Positions 2-7,697 of a stretch of DNA of 18,416 nt are shown here, one piece after another. The DNA is from a virus: UHGV virus genome UHGV-0317024; one strand, 5' to 3'. Position 1 is the first letter of the stretch. The number at the start of each line of letters is the position of its first letter. The notes below the pieces were generated by a model. The model saw only the letters and a list, made by a program, of their open reading frames with translations. It was not told the origin of the DNA and did not search any database. Made by a program: the position numbers and the translations under genes.

Positions 2-382
2 AAATACAACGTAGAATACATCGGTATTGATGCCACCGGCCTCGGTGTCGGCGTGTTCCAGCTCGTGCGCTCGTTCTATCCTGCCGCGCGCGATATCCGC
101 TACACGCCGGAAATGAAAACCGCAATGGTGCTCAAGGCCAAAGACGTTATCCGCCGTGGCTGTCTGGAATATGACGTCAGCGCCACCGACATCACCAGCT
201 CGTTTATGGCTATCCGCAAGACCATGACCAGCAGCGGACGCAGCGCCACGTATGAGGCCAGCCGCAGCGAGGAAGCCAGCCACGCCGACCTCGCCTGGGC
301 GACCATGCACGCCCTGTTAAATGAGCCACTCACCGCCGGTATCAGCACCCCGCTGACATCCACCATTCTGGAGTTTTACTGA
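2..382 (+). CDS. P: Terminase large (ATPase) subunit, C-terminal part; 5' end lies outside the window
   Basis: Reading frame is open from nt 2 (no stop) to TGA at 380-382, so the listed 53..382 ORF is only the tail of a longer gene. Stop overlaps the portal start codon in a TGATG junction. Call rests on position directly upstream of the portal gene and next to cos, as in the P2 P-Q operon; I do not recall the P2 gpP sequence itself. Confidence 0.7.
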   Translation, partial: KYNVEYIGIDATGLGVGVFQLVRSFYPAARDIRYTPEMKTAMVLKAKDVIRRGCLEYDVSATDITSSFMAIRKTMTSSGRSATYEASRSEEASHADLAWATMHALLNEPLTAGISTPLTSTILEFY

Positions 383-1416
383 TGAGCAAGAAAAAAGGGA
401 AAACACAGCAACCTGCGGCAAAAAAAATGACCGCCAGCGCCCCGAAAATGGAGGCATTCACCTTTGGTGAACCGGTACCGGTACTCGACCGCCGTGACAT
501 TCTGGATTACGTCGAGTGCATCAGTAACGGCAGATGGTATGAGCCACCGGTCAGCTTTACCGGTCTGGCAAAAAGCCTGCGTGCTGCCGTACATCACAGC
601 TCACCGATTTACGTCAAACGTAATATTCTGGCTTCAACGTTTATTCCGCACCCGTGGCTTTCCCAGCAGGATTTCAGCCGCTTTGTGCTGGATTTTCTGG
701 TGTTCGGTAATGCGTTTCTGGAAAAGCGTTACAGCACCACCGGTAAGGTCATCAGACTGGAAACCTCACCGGCAAAATATACCCGCCGTGGCGTGGAGGA
801 GGATGTTTACTGGTGGGTGCCGTCCTTCAACGAGCCGACAGCCTTCGCGCCCGGCTCCGTGTTTCACCTGCTGGAGCCGGATATTAATCAGGAGCTGTAC
901 GGCCTGCCGGAATATCTCAGCGCCCTTAATTCTGCCTGGCTGAATGAGTCGGCCACGCTGTTCCGCCGCAAGTATTACGAAAACGGCGCTCATGCCGGAT
1001 ATATCATGTACGTCACCGATGCCGTGCAGGATCGCAACGATATCGAAATGCTTCGCGAAAACATGGTCAAGTCGAAAGGCCGCAACAACTTTAAAAATCT
1101 GTTTCTCTATGCCCCGCAGGGGAAAGCCGACGGCATTAAAATTATCCCGCTCAGTGAAGTGGCAACGAAGGACGATTTTTTTAATATCAAAAAAGCCAGC
1201 GCCGCTGACCTGCTGGACGCGCACCGCATCCCCTTTCAGCTGATGGGTGGCAAGCCGGAAAACGTCGGGTCGCTGGGCGATATTGAGAAAGTGGCAAAGG
1301 TCTTTGTCCGCAATGAGCTTATCCCGCTACAGGACAGGATCCGCGAGATAAACGACTGGCTCGGTCAGGAGGTCATCCGCTTTAAAAACTACTCACTGGA
1401 CACTGACAACGGCTGA
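382..1416 (+). CDS. Q: Capsid portal protein (gpQ-like), 344 aa
   Basis: 344-aa ORF, same length as P2 gpQ; coupled to the upstream gene by ATG overlapping its stop; ends about 170 bp before the cos site, as in P2. Confidence 0.85.
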   Translation: MSKKKGKTQQPAAKKMTASAPKMEAFTFGEPVPVLDRRDILDYVECISNGRWYEPPVSFTGLAKSLRAAVHHSSPIYVKRNILASTFIPHPWLSQQDFSRFVLDFLVFGNAFLEKRYSTTGKVIRLETSPAKYTRRGVEEDVYWWVPSFNEPTAFAPGSVFHLLEPDINQELYGLPEYLSALNSAWLNESATLFRRKYYENGAHAGYIMYVTDAVQDRNDIEMLRENMVKSKGRNNFKNLFLYAPQGKADGIKIIPLSEVATKDDFFNIKKASAADLLDAHRIPFQLMGGKPENVGSLGDIEKVAKVFVRNELIPLQDRIREINDWLGQEVIRFKNYSLDTDNG

Positions 1417-1842: not shown

Positions 1843-2784
1843 ATGCAAGGTAAAGTTGACGAACAGCAATCCAATGATATTGAAGCTGAGTTTGGATACT
1901 ATCCAGTAGAAGTTAACGTTGAAACTGATGATTTTTCTTTACTTACTTTACCCGGTCTGGCGGAAAAAACAAATCTTATAAACAATCACAGAAATGTTAT
2001 TAACGGTTGGATATACCCAGGAAACCAAGAAGTATATAACCTCAATGGAGGCATATCCACAATGCCTTTTAGCCAACGAGTATTTGGCTTACCCAAAACA
2101 CACTCACTAAAATTAAAAAATACATCTTCACTAGAAACTCTCAATTTTGCTGTGTGGTGTCTGTCTTTTTTCAAAGGGATAAGATTAACAACTACTGATG
2201 CCGGTTTTTTAGACGCAACCCCAATAAAACCCAGCAAATTAACTGACTTTATTCTGGTCAAGTGCTCTGAAAAAGAGGTTATAGAATTAGCACTCAAATA
2301 CATGTCTAGCGAGACAAAAACCAAACACGCACCAATAAATATAGCAGCAATAGTGCATGCACTATTTTTATCCCAAAACCCACAATACCTTAGCTTCGAA
2401 AAATTCCAGTATCTTTACATGGCACTGGATAGTTGCTTTGCTTTAACATGGGCAGAAAAGAACAAGTGTACAGAAAAGACTCTAAATCACTCCAGGCGCT
2501 TGAAGTGGATCTGCAAAACTTATGGAATACCACGACCATCATGGGTTACAGGCAAAAAAAACATTACAAACATCCGCAATGAAAACTTTCATGAAGCTAT
2601 GTTTCATGGTCAACCACTTGGCTTTACCACTATTAACAATTATCAATATGGAGATGACATATTACAACAAATGCAGGCTTTAATTTGCCGATTACTCGTT
2701 GCGATTCTTGGTGTTAACGCCCCCGATTACATCACATCGAACGTGAACTCTCGTGAATATCATTCACTAACATTAAAAATATAA
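1843..2784 (+). CDS. Hypothetical protein, 313 aa, AT-rich cargo gene; function unknown (weak HEPN-like Rx4H motif at residues 245-250)
   Basis: Long ORF with SD GGAG (1833-1836) 6 nt before ATG. Codon usage is strongly AT-biased compared with flanking phage genes. No Walker or other clear catalytic motif recognised. R245-N-E-N-F-H250 fits Rx4H but that alone is not diagnostic. Confidence 0.6.
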   Translation: MQGKVDEQQSNDIEAEFGYYPVEVNVETDDFSLLTLPGLAEKTNLINNHRNVINGWIYPGNQEVYNLNGGISTMPFSQRVFGLPKTHSLKLKNTSSLETLNFAVWCLSFFKGIRLTTTDAGFLDATPIKPSKLTDFILVKCSEKEVIELALKYMSSETKTKHAPINIAAIVHALFLSQNPQYLSFEKFQYLYMALDSCFALTWAEKNKCTEKTLNHSRRLKWICKTYGIPRPSWVTGKKNITNIRNENFHEAMFHGQPLGFTTINNYQYGDDILQQMQALICRLLVAILGVNAPDYITSNVNSREYHSLTLKI

Positions 2785-2866: not shown

Positions 2867-3466
2867 TTACTTAGATAGTTTGTCTTTAATTATATTCAGA
2901 ACACCAATTATTAATTCACTGATTGGCGTGGCCAACTCAATAGTATTAGATGTCGACTTTGTTCTAAAGTCTTTATCTGTCGGGTGTTGAAATGCTGATT
3001 TAAGAAGAGTCAAAAGCAAAGTTAAACCCACACCAAGGATGAATGCAACAATAGCTATTAGAGAACTGGCCGATAACCAATCGGTGGATAAACCAGAAAT
3101 AGATTTTCTAACTTTATTAGTGTCTGAAGATGGTGTTATCCTCTCATCAGCCATCTTCGGATCCGAAGATAAAGCAGAACATTTTTCTGCTGAAACACAA
3201 GTTTGTGTATCTACTTTTTGTGTTATCGCTGCGGCAATACTGCTTTTCGCTTCCAGCAAGCCATTTCCAACAGCCAAAGCAAAGTTAAGCCCCTGCCATA
3301 GAAATGTACAAGCAAAACAAAGCACAACGGCAGAGAGCACTAATCGCATACTTCTACGCTCTATACCATCCCGTCTATCTCGCCTTATAAGGATATCAGG
3401 ATCTAAATCGCCCTTAGGAGTGGTTCCTTGCTCTGGGGACTGTCCAGATAAATCAATATCAGCCAT
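2867..3466 (-). CDS. Predicted membrane protein with two transmembrane helices, 199 aa; function unknown
   Basis: Two hydrophobic segments (about residues 40-67 and 130-155) separated by a Ser/Thr-rich hydrophilic loop; charged N-terminal 39 residues. AT-rich. Lies downstream of and co-oriented with the ImmA-like gene. No strong SD at the first ATG. Confidence 0.55.
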   Translation of the reverse strand: MADIDLSGQSPEQGTTPKGDLDPDILIRRDRRDGIERRSMRLVLSAVVLCFACTFLWQGLNFALAVGNGLLEAKSSIAAAITQKVDTQTCVSAEKCSALSSDPKMADERITPSSDTNKVRKSISGLSTDWLSASSLIAIVAFILGVGLTLLLTLLKSAFQHPTDKDFRTKSTSNTIELATPISELIIGVLNIIKDKLSK

Positions 3467-3532: not shown

Positions 3533-4018
3533 TTAATAAGCCATTCCTAAGCTCTTTAAGCGCCAATGCATAGCGGCTTCTGATACATTAAAGATGCTTG
3601 CTAATCTCAAAGTGCTATCAATACCTTCTCTGGATACCAATTGACGTATAGCAGACTCAGGCATTAACAACTCAGCAGCAAACTTGTTTGCTTCAACCTC
3701 ACGGTAATCACGAGCACCTGTTGAATAATTCCCGACATTATCCCGATGGTACTCTCCGTCCTGGGTATGCCCCAGCACATGATGACCTAACTCGTGTGCA
3801 ACAGTAAAACGTTGACGATTAGAATGTTCACTAGAATCAAAATAAATCCTATGGACACCCTTTTTGATGACAGCCAGACCGCTTAACCCATCGTTGTTAT
3901 AAGCCGATTCCTCAAGTGCTTCAACACGAGCACCCCACGCTTTAGCAAGCTTAAACGGATCGACAGGTAGTCGGCGATCCCAATAGCGGTCAAGCAGTTT
4001 TTTAGCTGCATAGCTCAT
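3533..4018 (-). CDS. ImmA/IrrE-family zinc metallopeptidase-like protein (HEXXH), 161 aa
   Basis: HELGH motif at residues 75-79 (nt 3782-3796) in the context FTVAHELGHHVLGH, with downstream EVEANKFAAELLMPE typical of the ImmA/IrrE (DUF955) fold. Strong SD AGGAGG 5 nt upstream of the ATG. AT-rich cargo. Confidence 0.8.
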   Translation of the reverse strand: MSYAAKKLLDRYWDRRLPVDPFKLAKAWGARVEALEESAYNNDGLSGLAVIKKGVHRIYFDSSEHSNRQRFTVAHELGHHVLGHTQDGEYHRDNVGNYSTGARDYREVEANKFAAELLMPESAIRQLVSREGIDSTLRLASIFNVSEAAMHWRLKSLGMAY

Positions 4019-4660
4019 GGTTGCCTCCTACGTTAAAAAAGTTAAGTATGCACAGCCATATCACAGTTGTTATTTTATGTCAAGGCTGTTTTTCAGCCAT
4101 TACTATAACACTAATCCACGTTTTCCCATAACATTTTCGACATCATATATGCATTCAGTTCTGCATATAGAGCTTATCTTTGCTGATAACACGAGATGAA
4201 TACGCGCAACCAGCCCACGATTTATAAAAAACCTTATAAATCAGAATATTGAGTTAAAAAAACACTAACTACTTGCGCAGCGAGTTGTTAAACCTCAGCG
4301 ATACTAAAAGAAAATTTCAGAGTCACCGAAGTTTCCACAGAAAACGCAACTTAATGATTTTATTGGAATTTATGTCGCTATTTTTAATTACTTGTTTAAA
4401 TCCGCCATATTGAAACTGTGCATTTCTAGCCACTCACAACTTTAAAAAATTTACATTGCTTTCAAGACCTTATCATCCGTAGTCTCTGCTTTTTACTTTG
4501 AGCTATATCAAAAAAAGCTCAAACATCCTTGATGCAAAACCAGTATTACACAACATAAAATGCAACCAGAAACAACGACATACTATATGTTGTGTTGTTC
4601 AGGTCCTCTGTTCGGTGATATGCCAGATCACTTTGCGTTTAAACAGAGCATTATTTCAGG

Positions 4661-4674
4661 GCAAGACTTCGCTC
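4661..4674 (+). repeat. Direct repeat copy 1, GCAAGACTTCGCTC
   Basis: Exact 14-nt match to 4925-4938; each copy is followed within 3-25 nt by AGTCACTC. Confidence 0.6.
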
Positions 4675-4739
4675 AATAGTCACTCCGCCTTAGAAGCGCA
4701 TATATCGGCGGAAATTGCCCTCTGCTTACAGGAGGCGAT

Positions 4740-4853
4740 ATGAAGAAGTGCTATTACTGCATTCTCGTTCTGGCCCTCTTTGGCTATCCATATGGTAGTC
4801 CGAGTGGTTTGTCAGTAAACGTCAGTAATATCCATGTAAGTATTTTTCTTTAG
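4740..4853 (+). CDS. Candidate small hydrophobic peptide, 37 aa (MKKCYYCILVLALFGYPYGSPSGLSVNVSNIHVSIFL)
   Basis: Not in the supplied ORF track. Canonical SD AGGAGG (4730-4735) 4 nt before ATG 4740; stop TAG 4851-4853; followed 18 nt later by a terminator; hydrophobic Cys/Tyr-rich N-terminus. Confidence 0.3.
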   Translation: MKKCYYCILVLALFGYPYGSPSGLSVNVSNIHVSIFL

Positions 4854-4861
4854 TATGCTTC

Positions 4862-4895
4862 AAACAAAAAAACCACCTGCCAGGGTGGTTTTTTT
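4862..4895. terminator. Bidirectional rho-independent terminator
   Basis: Stem CCACCT(4873-4878)/GGGTGG(4883-4888, one G-U pair), flanked by A-run 4862-4872 and T-run 4889-4895. Can terminate the small plus-strand ORF and minus-strand transcription leaving gene A. Confidence 0.65.
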
Positions 4896-4924
4896 GCGCC
4901 CGTCATCAATCCGATGAAAGACTA

Positions 4925-4938
4925 GCAAGACTTCGCTC
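4925..4938 (+). repeat. Direct repeat copy 2, GCAAGACTTCGCTC
   Basis: Exact 14-nt match to 4661-4674. Confidence 0.6.
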
Positions 4939-5155
4939 GAGATGAATTATGCTTCGACATAAAGTCACTCGCAATGGTTTTATTAACCGAAATAGATGCT
5001 CTTTTATGACTCGAATCAAATAGCTGCCTTCAATTACATGCTAACGATTCAATACAATTTAGCCTTCTGATTCAACACGCTATTGCTCCTCATCTACCTT
5101 AGAGGTGTTTCGCATAATCCATTCAAAGACATATAAAATCACGCTGTATTTTTAC

Positions 5156-7432
5156 TCAAATGGGTAACAAAAATCCCGGCCAATCATCAGCGACCTGATA
5201 AGTGAAAGGTTTCCCGTCATAATTTACGGTCGCGCCACGCGCCAGCGCCTCAAGCTCCCATCGTTGCGGCCTGATACCGTTCTGAGCGAGATCAACGCGG
5301 ATACGGGTAATTTGCAATCGTTCCGACCGGGTCAGTCTGGCCGATGGTGCAATTTCATGCGGTTTTAACGGGCTTCCGTTTCTTTGCTGACGGTTTGGCG
5401 TTCTCCGGTCGTGTTTTAATGCGCCCCTGAGCGCCCTCACGACCTCCGGGTCATTCCATTCGATAACATCGTCATCAACCAGATTAAGCACTGCTGCGGC
5501 GTGCTCAGAAGGTGTGGGAGCCGGTAACGAAGTATCACCACCGGTGAGCTTTCCACAGTTATTGACAGGACTCCGAGGCGCGGCGATGCCGCTTTTTAAA
5601 GTCAAAGGCTGAACGACCGGAACTTTCGGCACAATGCGCCAGTCCGTCGTTCTGGTGATATGAATATGACGCGCGCCGAGATGCGGCGCGTAAATGCCGA
5701 CCACTCTCTCGACCTCTTCCTCGTACTCGTTAACGTCATCCGACAGACTACGGGCGACCCTGACAGTCTGACAATCGCGCGGGACATTTGCCCCACCCTG
5801 CGCGCTGATATACAGCGCAAAATCACCACTGTCTGCGGCGGCGCGTGCAGCCTCGACGCGCTCGTCAAACTCATCAGCAATGCTGACGCCGCGAGGCAAT
5901 TTGCGTAGTTCACGGTAAGCCCCCATTGTCGGCAGGCCAACCGTTTTAAATTGCGGAATGCGCCACGTTGACGCCCATGCGGTAACAGCCGCTGCAGTGT
6001 CTTTCAGCGGCCTGCCGGTGTCGTTATCGAGCTGACCATCCAGTGCATAGCCGTCGATGTTTTTTGAAATGTATTTCGCGATATATCCCGCAGCACCGCC
6101 CCGGTTAAGGTGTTTTGCCTGAAAACGGTTTCGCGCGGCTCCTCTTTCGTCGCCATCCTCTTTGAGCGCATAGCGACGCATGATTTCGATAATCTGGTTA
6201 CGCTGGCGTGGATGACAAAAAAGCATCATATGCCAGTGCGGCGTTCCGTCGTGGTGTGGCTCGACGACTCGCAAACCGTAGACCTGTAAATCATTATCCT
6301 TGAATGCCGTGCGCATCAGGCTCCAGATACGGCAGAGATAACGCTGCGCATCCTTTGGATTAAATGCCTCATCGTTCCAGCCGTGATTAAGCTGAACGGT
6401 TTTACTTTCGCCTTTTCCGACCTGACGTGTCGGGTGATACTTTGACGGCGCGGTCAGCGTGATAAACATCCCCACATCACCCTCTGCGGCGGCGTAACGC
6501 TCAATACCGGCAATGGTGTTCATCAGCTCCATCCGGCGAATTTCAGGATTAGAAATACTGCCCATCACCTTACTGATAAGGTCGATGCGCTCGCCGGTTT
6601 CCCTGTTTTCAAGGTCACACGATTTAAGAAATTCCAGATTTGCCTGGCGGCGCGCACGCACATCACGAATGGCGTGTTTACTGGCATAAGGAGAACGGTC
6701 TTTATTGACCTCCCCGACAGCTATCAGTAACGCCTCATGCCAGCGCATACGCTGGCCTTTAAGCTGATGAGTCCACCACTCATCGTTAAACAGGCGGGCA
6801 ATGGCAGAATATGCCTGCCTCGTGGTCATCTGTCCTTTACGGTATTTTTTCCAGTAGAGCGGGGAAATATTGAAAGCACGTGCAGCGCCAGCAACATGAC
6901 CATACAGGTGAGCCTGCGCCTCATCCGTAAACAGCGATTCTTTTTCACCATGCGCATCCACCCATGCATCGCAGAGTTCCTCATACATCATGAAAAGCTG
7001 CGATGAGATACGGGCGGCAAACTTTTTCAGCTCCTTGTCATTCATTCCCGGCAGGCGCGCATAGTGGTCACGCTCTGCCAGAAACAGCAACGACGCGTCG
7101 GTGTTCATTTCATGGCGCTGATTCACACGCTCAATGCGCGGCCATAAACGACGCTGAAAAGTAGATGTGAGGAAATAAAACCCGTGCACCGGGCTTTTAT
7201 TGCGCCGGATGTAGTCATAGCGTGAAGTAAACAGCGAGCGCAAAAAGTAAGGCAGGCGGTTAATCGTGGATAAAACACCTTGCACCTGACGCATCTCGTC
7301 ACGTGTAAGAGGTCTTTCGCGCCCGACAGCCTCGCGTGGCGCGTTCCATGCATAAGCACCGGTAAACGCCTTACCGGTGCCTGCGGTAAATGCTGACGGA
7401 GGGACAAAACGCCCGGAGGCTTTAACGGCCAT
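5156..7432 (-). CDS. A: Rolling-circle replication initiation endonuclease (gpA-like)
   Basis: The 772-aa ORF begins at a TTG at 7474; I place the start at the ATG at 7432 (MAVKASGRFVPP...), which matches the P2 gpA N-terminus as I recall it and gives 758 aa against 761 in P2. Position downstream of the early operon is as in P2. Confidence 0.85.
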   Translation of the reverse strand: MAVKASGRFVPPSAFTAGTGKAFTGAYAWNAPREAVGRERPLTRDEMRQVQGVLSTINRLPYFLRSLFTSRYDYIRRNKSPVHGFYFLTSTFQRRLWPRIERVNQRHEMNTDASLLFLAERDHYARLPGMNDKELKKFAARISSQLFMMYEELCDAWVDAHGEKESLFTDEAQAHLYGHVAGAARAFNISPLYWKKYRKGQMTTRQAYSAIARLFNDEWWTHQLKGQRMRWHEALLIAVGEVNKDRSPYASKHAIRDVRARRQANLEFLKSCDLENRETGERIDLISKVMGSISNPEIRRMELMNTIAGIERYAAAEGDVGMFITLTAPSKYHPTRQVGKGESKTVQLNHGWNDEAFNPKDAQRYLCRIWSLMRTAFKDNDLQVYGLRVVEPHHDGTPHWHMMLFCHPRQRNQIIEIMRRYALKEDGDERGAARNRFQAKHLNRGGAAGYIAKYISKNIDGYALDGQLDNDTGRPLKDTAAAVTAWASTWRIPQFKTVGLPTMGAYRELRKLPRGVSIADEFDERVEAARAAADSGDFALYISAQGGANVPRDCQTVRVARSLSDDVNEYEEEVERVVGIYAPHLGARHIHITRTTDWRIVPKVPVVQPLTLKSGIAAPRSPVNNCGKLTGGDTSLPAPTPSEHAAAVLNLVDDDVIEWNDPEVVRALRGALKHDRRTPNRQQRNGSPLKPHEIAPSARLTRSERLQITRIRVDLAQNGIRPQRWELEALARGATVNYDGKPFTYQVADDWPGFLLPI

Positions 7433-7697
7433 ATGAGCCAAAAGCCTCTGAACAACGCTTGCTGAGTTGCTCAACCTGCGCGTTTAAATCAGCAAAAGAT
7501 TTTGCGCTTCCGGTCAGAATATCGTGATGCATCAGGCCGGAAACGAGCTGGCCTAATTTCGGGTAATAACCAACCACCGCCAGCCATTCCTGACCGGCGT
7601 TTTTACCGCTTTCCGCTCTCTTTTTCTCGTGGAGAATAAACTGAAAGCTGTCACTGGTAACGACATAACGTTCGCCAATTTCAATACGAATACTCAT
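7422..7697 (-). CDS. Early-operon hypothetical protein, 91 aa (P2 orf83 position)
   Basis: ORF with stop overlapping the A start and start overlapping the upstream gene stop (ATGA coupling); synteny with the P2 early operon. Confidence 0.6.
   Translation of the reverse strand: MSIRIEIGERYVVTSDSFQFILHEKKRAESGKNAGQEWLAVVGYYPKLGQLVSGLMHHDILTGSAKSFADLNAQVEQLSKRCSEAFGSYGR

Follow-up and report, generated by a model that had tools for sequence, protein, structure and literature searches.

A predicted toxin–antitoxin-like cassette beside replication gene A

The virus genome UHGV-0317024 (18,416 nucleotides, nt; this whole stretch is referred to here as the window) is that of a P2-like (Peduovirus) phage in circular form, in which an AT-rich spacer (positions 4019–5155) separates an ImmA-like peptidase gene from the replication gene A. 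We believe that the core of this spacer, from about 4442 to 5005, is probably a type I toxin–antitoxin-like cassette, located at the gene A border of the P2 cos-proximal defence hotspot. On the plus strand, a promoter derived from that of nrdDG, in which a TAAAAT −10 element is accompanied by two FNR boxes and has a pair of NrdR-like boxes placed around it, would drive an mRNA of ~325 nt, composed of a structured leader of ~170 nt, with the Shine–Dalgarno (SD) sequence held in a hairpin, and of the coding region for a peptide of 37 amino acids (aa). On the minus strand, a constitutive-looking sigma-70 promoter would give rise to a small RNA (sRNA) of ~72 nt, convergent with the mRNA and ending at a bidirectional terminator common to both, and the first 14–17 nt of this sRNA would be the reverse complement of a leader site 66–79 nt upstream of the AUG. 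The sRNA is expected to pair with the leader and to block synthesis of the peptide, for which the candidate routes are cleavage by RNase III, loss of a ribosome standby site, or invasion of a leader helix (H3, see below). We infer that both RNAs are made, that their pairing represses, and that the peptide is toxic.

Homologues were retrieved by searches anchored on the terminator, the metagenome scan being additionally anchored on the −10 element of the sRNA promoter (ATTATGC). These anchored searches yielded 75 complete cassette copies representing 19 sequence variants, and a protein search independent of the terminator added two more copies, one complete and one cut at a contig end. Individual loci are cited below by number (L001 and so on).

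A small conserved ORF encodes a hydrophobic peptide

The small open reading frame (ORF; 4740–4853, plus strand) encodes the 37-aa peptide MKKCYYCILVLALFGYPYGSPSGLSVNVSNIHVSIFL and is preceded by the SD sequence AGGAGG (4730–4735, plus strand), four nt before its ATG. In 19/19 variants the frame is kept, with a length of 37–39 codons, and the proportion of synonymous differences (pS) exceeds that of non-synonymous differences (pN) throughout, the ratio of non-synonymous to synonymous rates (dN/dS) being 0.08–0.6. Between this genome and L080, for instance, pS is 0.53 and pN 0.18, while L080 and L052 give a dN/dS of 0.08. These comparisons indicate that the small ORF is a selected coding gene under purifying selection.

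The members of the peptide family have a common layout: a basic N-terminus precedes an uncharged hydrophobic core of 10–13 residues, and a G-x-P-x-G-S-Q-S-G turn then leads into a C-terminal segment in which hydrophobic residues alternate with polar ones. The family has left almost no trace in annotation: the small ORF is annotated in one inspected record only (OQ383618, “hypothetical protein”), and the predicted sRNA in none. Five peptide variants had no match in Pfam, NCBIfam, or PHROGs; a search of 1.84 billion representative proteins gave eight matches with E ≤ 0.001, six of which are family members, and literature text searches for the peptide strings and the seed string of the sRNA found no paper. 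A preliminary description of this sequence had proposed a small toxic peptide or sRNA locus, and this proposal is supported by the conserved, selected ORF and by the repeats described below, which would serve as target and seed of the predicted sRNA, with the peptide itself presumed toxic.

The peptide could also be harmless within the very same RNA anatomy, that is, an exported or membrane peptide acting as a lysogenic-conversion, exclusion, or signalling factor and tuned by the sRNA, oxygen, and deoxynucleoside triphosphates (dNTPs), a possibility that we consider rather unlikely. Its N-terminus is indeed Sec signal-like, with basic residues, the hydrophobic core of 10–13 residues, and a G-x-P-x-G-S turn, and the alternating C-terminus is unlike that of helical pore-formers. 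However, a signal-like N-terminus is also found in TimP, a toxic peptide of 38 aa (PMC7667032), the cassette is enriched on plasmids, prophages, and islands, and a sequestered SD together with an antisense partner under a constitutive-looking promoter is the hallmark of addiction-type modules.

Direct repeats as target and seed of a predicted sRNA

The exact 14-nt direct repeats GCAAGACTTCGCTC (4661–4674 and 4925–4938, 264 nt apart) have no other site with three or fewer mismatches in the whole window. When the 1137-nt spacer was simulated 2000 times with a first-order Markov model, 0.7% of the simulations contained an exact direct repeat of at least 14 nt, and analytically 0.006 pairs would be expected, in line with the preliminary estimate of a chance below 1%. 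The features listed in that description (ORF, SD, terminator, repeats, two copies of AGTCACTC, and the flanking genes) were likewise all found in their given places.

The patterns of conservation described here support the view that one of the 14-nt repeats is the target site on the mRNA and the other the 5′ seed of a predicted antisense-type sRNA. The repeat would occur on either side of the ORF and the terminator because the 5′ end of the sRNA is complementary to the leader site. Site 1, the predicted target in the leader, consists of the first repeat copy plus one G:U position (4660–4674, plus strand), 66–79 nt upstream of the ATG. The predicted sRNA of ~72 nt (4867–4939, minus strand) is formed by the 5′ seed (4925–4939), stem-loop 1 (4898–4922), and then the terminator. 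Its sigma-70-type promoter (4946–4986, minus strand), first found by a consensus promoter scan, has a −35 element TTGCGA (4974–4969), a 17-nt spacer, and a −10 element CATAAT (4951–4946), together with an A/T-rich UP-like tract (4986–4978, minus strand). The hexamers and the UP-like tract are conserved in the 19 variants and the 17-nt spacer is free to vary; the seed, which is the complement of repeat copy 2, starts 7–8 nt past the −10 element.

The bidirectional intrinsic terminator (4866–4895, both strands), common to the peptide mRNA and the predicted sRNA, is a 13-nt perfect inverted repeat, and its minus strand likewise gives a terminator fold. It is composed of an A-run (4866–4872), a stem (4873–4877/4884–4888), a loop (4878–4883), and a T-run (4889–4895), and was missed by the consensus scanner because the greedy stem takes in the A/T arms. 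No variant differs in the stem-loop CCACCTGCCAGGGTGG, and this holds also for L076 and L115, retrieved without the terminator anchor. The predicted sRNA folds with −31.9 kcal/mol (z = −3.6), and its three parts, the 5′ seed region, a sequence-variable middle stem-loop, and the terminator, are present in all of the 15 variants folded, as discrete hairpins in the minimum free energy structure in 14 of them. The seed is wholly unpaired in four variants and partly closed by a weak hairpin of 4–6 base pairs (bp) in the others.

The longest stretch over which leader and sRNA region match lies at the homologous position in every complete variant and is mostly 13–18 nt exact; in L017 and L079 the exact runs are 8–9 nt, with one G:U breaking the duplex between site 1 and site 2. 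The geometry is equally constant, the site 1 core starting 76–79 nt before the ATG and the site 2 core 18–19 nt before the −10 element. An intermolecular helix model leaves 95.4% of the cells paired, compared with 29–43% when the two sites are slid against each other. Four pairs (14 cells) show compensatory changes, and the covariation of 0.196 exceeds that of shuffled alignments (0.129 ± 0.014), none of the 500 shuffles being as high. Three positions are altered in both repeat copies in one clade (AAGACTTCGCT to AAGGCTTTGCT) and one position in another clade, while all other internal mismatches are either G in site 1 with A in site 2 or T in site 1 with C in site 2. Such mismatches are G:U pairs only if the mRNA is transcribed from the plus strand through site 1 and the sRNA from the minus strand through site 2. 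Cognate duplexes have predicted energies of −25.6 to −34 kcal/mol, whereas sRNAs of the AAGGCUUUGCU class pair poorly with mRNAs carrying the plain AAGACUUCGCU site (−10 to −17 kcal/mol); with the intermediates L017, L079, and L052 they reach −18 to −23 kcal/mol.

It is very unlikely that the repeats are DNA elements, be it a pair of binding sites of a single protein or what the insertion of an ORF-plus-terminator unit left behind, as a target-site duplication or a recombination scar. Direct repeats 264 nt apart do flank a discrete unit, and two sites for one protein would likewise remain similar, but the cassette sits in unrelated elements without a common regulator, the distances from the repeats to the ATG and to the promoter −10 are fixed, and mismatches that are solely G:U-compatible, for one strand assignment, are not predicted by DNA-site models. 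A scar would decay, not co-vary, across lineages that are ~60–75% identical. The repeated regulatory sites of the preliminary description are upheld only in the sense of RNA–RNA pairing and not as DNA sites.

The two AGTCACTC copies (4678–4685 and 4964–4971, plus strand) were considered as a second pairing element, and this was rejected: they vary independently in relatives, and the second copy lies outside the predicted sRNA because it is positioned in the spacer of the sRNA promoter. It is probably coincidental or lineage-specific. In another register, an imperfect direct repeat of 19 nt with 74% identity (4667–4685 and 4952–4970) connects the sRNA promoter spacer with the 3′ flank of site 1; it may have been left by the duplication from which the antisense gene arose.

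A structured leader predicted to sequester the Shine–Dalgarno sequence

The predicted structured 5′ untranslated region (UTR) of the peptide mRNA (4568–4739, plus strand) is ~170 nt long, its start being placed from the −10 element. A consensus structure calculated with RNAalifold from 12 variants contains the helices H1 (4606–4612/4642–4648), H2 (4614–4618/4628–4632), and H4 (4684–4689/4707–4712), and possibly a helix H3 (4658–4664/4715–4721). Its 25 pairs are formed in 92.3% of the cells, compared with 39–52% when slid; 13 of the 25 have compensatory changes, and the covariation is 0.387 compared with 0.197 ± 0.019 in shuffled alignments (0/500 shuffles as high).

Just upstream of the ORF, a predicted hairpin read from the sequence (4719–4735, plus strand) would sequester the SD: the anti-SD CCUCU (4719–4723) faces the SD in AGGAGG across a 7-nt loop. 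In partition-function folds of 14 variants, the probability that the SD is unpaired is 0.03–0.43. In the possible helix H3, a stretch overlapping the anti-SD is the partner of the 5′ half of site 1, and we considered a switch triggered by the sRNA, in which invasion of H3 frees the anti-SD to close the SD. We retain it as no more than one candidate, the SD being mostly paired in the folds of the 14 variants with site 1 either free or blocked.

The peptide promoter resembles that of the host nrdDG operon

The promoter region of the peptide gene (4442–4566, plus strand) is homologous to the Escherichia coli nrdDG promoter. Positions 4442–4538 match the treC–nrdD intergenic region in all 5426 of 5426 E. 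coli genomes by sensitive BLAST (97 nt, 84–86% identity, E 1e-21), and the 12/12 cassette variants aligned are colinear with PnrdD of strain K-12, with pairwise E values of 4e-13 to 2e-29. A consensus promoter scan called no promoter for the peptide gene, and the promoter was recognised by this homology, which indicates that it is a paralogue of the host nrdDG promoter. The colinearity extends, with the same spacing, from a TTTACA motif through the FNR boxes, NrdR box 1, and the −10 element to NrdR box 2; the two promoters differ in that nrdDG encodes the anaerobic ribonucleotide reductase, while the cassette version would drive the mRNA of a 37-aa peptide on mobile elements, and in that box 1 is degenerate or shifted in the lineage of this phage.

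The FNR-2-like box TTGAGCTATATCAA (4498–4511, plus strand) agrees at 9/10 positions with TTGATnnnnATCAA, and its centre is located 51.5 nt before the −10 element in K-12 PnrdD and in all variants. The FNR-1-like box TTGATGCAAAACCA (4529–4542, plus strand; 8/10) is centred 20.5 nt before the −10 element in K-12 PnrdD and in 12 of the 13 variants; where it would be expected in L084 there is a degenerate half-site, TTAATGC. The −10 element itself, TA(A/G)AAT, is invariant in all variants and K-12, and in this genome (TAAAAT, 4556–4561) it is overlapped by an NrdR-like box matching at 12/16 positions (4548–4563, plus strand). A second NrdR-like box, ATACTATATGTTGTGT (4580–4595, plus strand; 14/16), lies 16 bp past the first, and the pair was also detected as an inverted repeat. 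Boxes 15–16 bp apart are found in L076, L103, L053, L078, L081, and L051, with box 2 weak (9–10/16) in L078 and L081, and boxes 26 bp apart in L079 and L052. In L017, L080, and L082 there is no NrdR-like pair at 15–16 or 26 bp, the spacing there being 7 or 20 bp with matches of 10–12/16.

The homologous 57-bp fragment of K-12 is bound by NrdR loaded with ATP and dATP (PMC12176259), and expression of nrdDG requires FNR (PMC2892513); we infer that FNR and NrdR control the peptide gene as well. A literature search found no paper linking NrdR to a toxin–antitoxin locus.

Within this region, positions 4470–4538 are almost identical to the E. coli nrdDG promoter (L114, 2529–2597), with the sequence TTGAGCTAyATCAAAAAAAGCTCAAACATCCTTGATGCAAA, where other variants have TTGTTCTG... 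This near-identity suggests that the stretch has recently recombined with the host locus or been converted by it.

A mosaic spacer with a mobile core

As a mosaic, the spacer combines a leader linked to the cargo, a backbone junction, the cassette, and the 3′ UTR of gene A; neither this layout nor the nrdDG homology had been part of the preliminary description. Its left part (4019–4390, minus strand) is the AT-rich upstream region of the ImmA/CapP-like gene, and thus hotspot cargo and not cassette: it travels only with the ImmA-like gene, being found solely in ImmA-positive loci (this genome, L001, L002, and ImmA-positive viral contigs), and is swapped for other sequence or for cos in L003–L005. 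Positions 4391–4441 form a P2-backbone junction from cos-proximal or cargo DNA to the cassette, kept in P2-type loci, including the cargo-free L005, and absent from non-P2 copies. At the other end, the gene A-proximal 3′ untranslated stretch (5006–5155, minus strand) is P2-specific, 85–95% conserved in P2-type loci only. Homology to the non-P2 cassette copies covers ~4440 to 5005, and these limits indicate that the core (~4442–5005) is an autonomous mobile cassette, previously unannotated.

At the megablast level the spacer matches only three phage records, but 150 of the 5426 complete E. coli genomes (~3%). In every one of these E. coli genomes the right-hand ~765 nt (4391–5155) adjoins gene A, and the cargo at the left end varies: ImmA, an AAA ATPase (L003), SIR2 (L004), or none (L005, where the spacer abuts cos). 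Variants encoding MKKCYYC... are always located beside gpA and the diverged variants never are. The latter have as neighbours a protelomerase (L017), Zot/secretin genes (L052), an integrase with a DsbA-like gene (L053), a resolvase (L078), or an IS3 transposase (L080).

The cassette is also present in other prophages and islands and, by BLAST against PLSDB, on 409 plasmids, 392 of them from Klebsiella and 347 conjugative. The carriers are mostly large conjugative IncF Klebsiella plasmids, with copies of ~75% identity over 95% of the query that are annotated on no plasmid. The one IncFIB/IncFII plasmid inspected carries a complete cassette, and at least this example also has resistance genes. 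Conservation of the ORF and of the repeats in relatives, on which the preliminary description had made its reading depend, is found for both across the 19 variants.

It is hardly conceivable that the spacer is a decayed larger gene (an old/tin-like exclusion gene or former cargo, the degraded or exchanged gene of the preliminary description) with the small ORF as a chance leftover. The locus does coincide with the tin/old hotspot of P2-like phages, which is known to be variable (PMC9122126), and it is AT-rich without long ORFs. Against this, the ORF is of constant length and under purifying selection, the entire cassette is conserved outside P2, with its anatomy complete in unrelated elements that lack P2 genes, the leader indels are not multiples of three, the covariation is of the RNA type, and the longer spacer ORFs (81 and 60 aa) have no family matches; as regards tin and old themselves this evidence is indirect, no direct comparison with them having been made.

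Some further observations concern individual copies and the terminator. In L051 (4629–5553), a metagenome-assembled Enterobacter genome, the cassette is split by an insertion of ~920 bp between two copies of the terminator; the insertion has a 217-aa ORF of no known family, and site 1 and site 2 are still perfectly matched over 16 nt. L100, a metagenomic contig with transposase genes nearby, has two cassette copies of different variants 2.9 kb apart (3418 and 6338). A scan of genome contigs with a 24-mer of the terminator returned mostly tiny contigs from unrelated taxa that share the terminator alone, the true homologues being only L051–L053. The 27-nt terminator core occurs on contigs of 0.4–3 kb assigned to Streptomyces, Micromonospora, Kocuria, Clostridium, and Hymenobacter, and also on small enterobacterial plasmids (L041–L075). 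This looks like a common small plasmid, vector, or contaminant with an RNAI-like terminator; the Rfam family RNAI matches the terminator core weakly, with 28 bits (gathering score 47).

In many “complete” E. coli chromosomes from RefSeq (H4, H5, H15, H18, H24, H30, H37, H39, and H42), the spacer match begins at record position 2278, and therefore the record starts at the first base of a 2277-nt prophage gene A. Apparently, the P2 replication gene, and not dnaA, was taken as the starting point when these assemblies were rotated.

Genome setting of the cassette

In the window, the portal gene Q (382–1416, plus strand) is followed by the 19-nt P2 cos sequence (1586–1604) and by three cargo genes (1843–2784, plus strand; 2867–3466, minus strand; and 3533–4018, minus strand), the last of which is the ImmA-like gene, encoding an ImmA/M78 peptidase. 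Gene A occupies 5156–7474 on the minus strand. The interval between gpA and gpQ is a published defence hotspot of P2-like phages; the paper in question proceeds gene by gene and mentions no non-coding element (PMC9122126).

The GC content of the spacer is 32–44%, compared with 52–58% in gene A. The longest spacer ORFs, of 81 aa (4498–4743) and 60 aa (4017–4199), gave no family match in a Pfam search and are not conserved in the alignment of relatives.

The ImmA-like protein is CapP-like (PADLOC capP, E 1e-30; Pfam Peptidase_M78). No gene for a CapH-like helix–turn–helix (HTH) protein was noticed beside it, the neighbours not having been screened for HTH folds; the 199-aa and 313-aa neighbours match solely PHROGs of unknown function (phrog_8096 and phrog_5937), and in P2DC1 (L002) the ImmA-like protease is partnered instead by a different protein of 159 aa. 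This genome resembles P2 in having its cargo between cos and gene A, while in L003 (AAA ATPase) and L004 (SIR2) cos adjoins the cassette and the cargo lies between cos and the portal gene Q. Cargo is therefore found on either side of cos, at two insertion points flanking it.

Comparison with known type I systems

Type I toxin–antitoxin loci are recognised by a small (<60 aa), hydrophobic, and conserved coding gene and by an adjacent sRNA gene complementary to its mRNA. The cassette has such a coding gene, and the predicted sRNA, with its duplex of 14–18 nt, would be the complementary partner.

The closest likeness in layout that we describe here is to par of the Enterococcus faecalis plasmid pAD1 (Fst, RNA I, RNA II), which also has convergent promoters with a common bidirectional terminator, direct repeats that are transcribed in opposite directions and so give RNA–RNA complementarity, an intramolecular structure sequestering the SD, and carriage on mobile elements (PMC7472228). 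Unlike the cassette, par originates from Firmicutes and has two repeats (DRa and DRb) spanning the SD and the start codon, whereas the cassette has a single repeat 66–79 nt upstream of the AUG, with site 1 ending 63–66 nt before the ATG in all variants. The peptide also lacks the Fst/Ldr signature (a transmembrane helix, a conserved Trp, a highly charged C-terminus, and PXXXG): its C-terminal 17 residues are uncharged or have a single acidic residue, without a charged tail, and the hydrophobic core has no PXXXG. No sequence similarity was found between the cassette and par.

In the enterobacterial pairs tisB/istR-1, zorO/orzO, shoB/ohsC, and dinQ/agrB, the sRNA likewise has its pairing site within a long structured 5′ UTR, at a great distance upstream from the SD, and, as in the cassette, the primary transcript is predicted to be translationally inert. 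The complementarity in such pairs is short, roughly 18–21 nt. These pairs are, however, transcribed divergently, and tisB and dinQ are controlled by LexA, while the cassette is convergent, with a terminator common to both genes and an nrdDG-type promoter. The timP/timR pair (ryfA locus of Salmonella and E. coli) has a 38-aa peptide with a signal-sequence-like N-terminus, comparable to the peptide described here, and the 5′ end of the sRNA TimR pairs with an 18-nt stretch of the 5′ UTR (PMC7667032); it differs in the divergent orientation of timR and in being a core-genome locus.

Rfam, including istR, orzO, ohsC, sib, rdl, and sok, gave zero matches at the gathering score, and ryfA (RF00126) had no match at E up to 10. 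The sub-threshold matches at E up to 10 were RNAI, the Phe leader, and OrzO-P (22 bits, gathering score 60), all driven by the terminator. The covariance search suggested in the preliminary description thus returned no family at the gathering score, while covariation was found by RNAalifold within the leader itself.

Weight of the evidence and proposed function

Several observations weigh against a type I toxin–antitoxin-like cassette as described above. The hydrophobic stretch of just 10–13 residues and the beta-strand-like C-terminus are atypical for helical type I toxins. Folding the leader with site 1 blocked leaves the accessibility of the SD unchanged. The K-12-like NrdR box 1 is degenerate in the lineage of this phage, where the best fit is a shifted pair (12/16 and 14/16, with a linker of 16). 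Covariation between site 1 and site 2 reflects few independent events, because three of the four compensatory pairs stem from one clade (L051, L053, L078, and L081). Finally, the conservation of the terminator and of ATTATGC is in part by construction, because both served as retrieval anchors, a bias that is offset in part only by L076, L115, and a 5′ UTR-anchored scan of viral contigs, which returned the same contigs. With these points taken into account, we still consider the type I toxin–antitoxin-like cassette probable.

As to what such a cassette would do, a speculative and rather unlikely reading is a suicide or dormancy switch gated by the nucleotide pool and oxygen, which phages and plasmids would have gained by copying the nrdDG promoter and which might act as an abortive-infection or addiction device at the margin of the P2 defence hotspot and on Klebsiella resistance plasmids. 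Host NrdR, as a sensor of dATP, and FNR, as a sensor of oxygen, would decide when the toxin mRNA outruns the constitutive antitoxin sRNA, and a collapse of dNTPs in the anaerobic gut, caused by a superinfecting lytic phage or by replication stress, would trigger the peptide.

If the type I toxin–antitoxin-like reading is confirmed, the cassette would be a previously undescribed enterobacterial type I toxin–antitoxin family, extending the par/Fst layout to Gram-negative bacteria and offering a clean model of seed-to-leader pairing. We know of no earlier case of a mobile element copying the nrdDG control region, and the promoter would provide a testable link from dNTP and oxygen sensing to the expression of a toxin. 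A stabilising or stress-responsive module on Klebsiella plasmids would be of practical interest, and the “non-coding flank” of the P2 defence hotspot would be a functional module itself.

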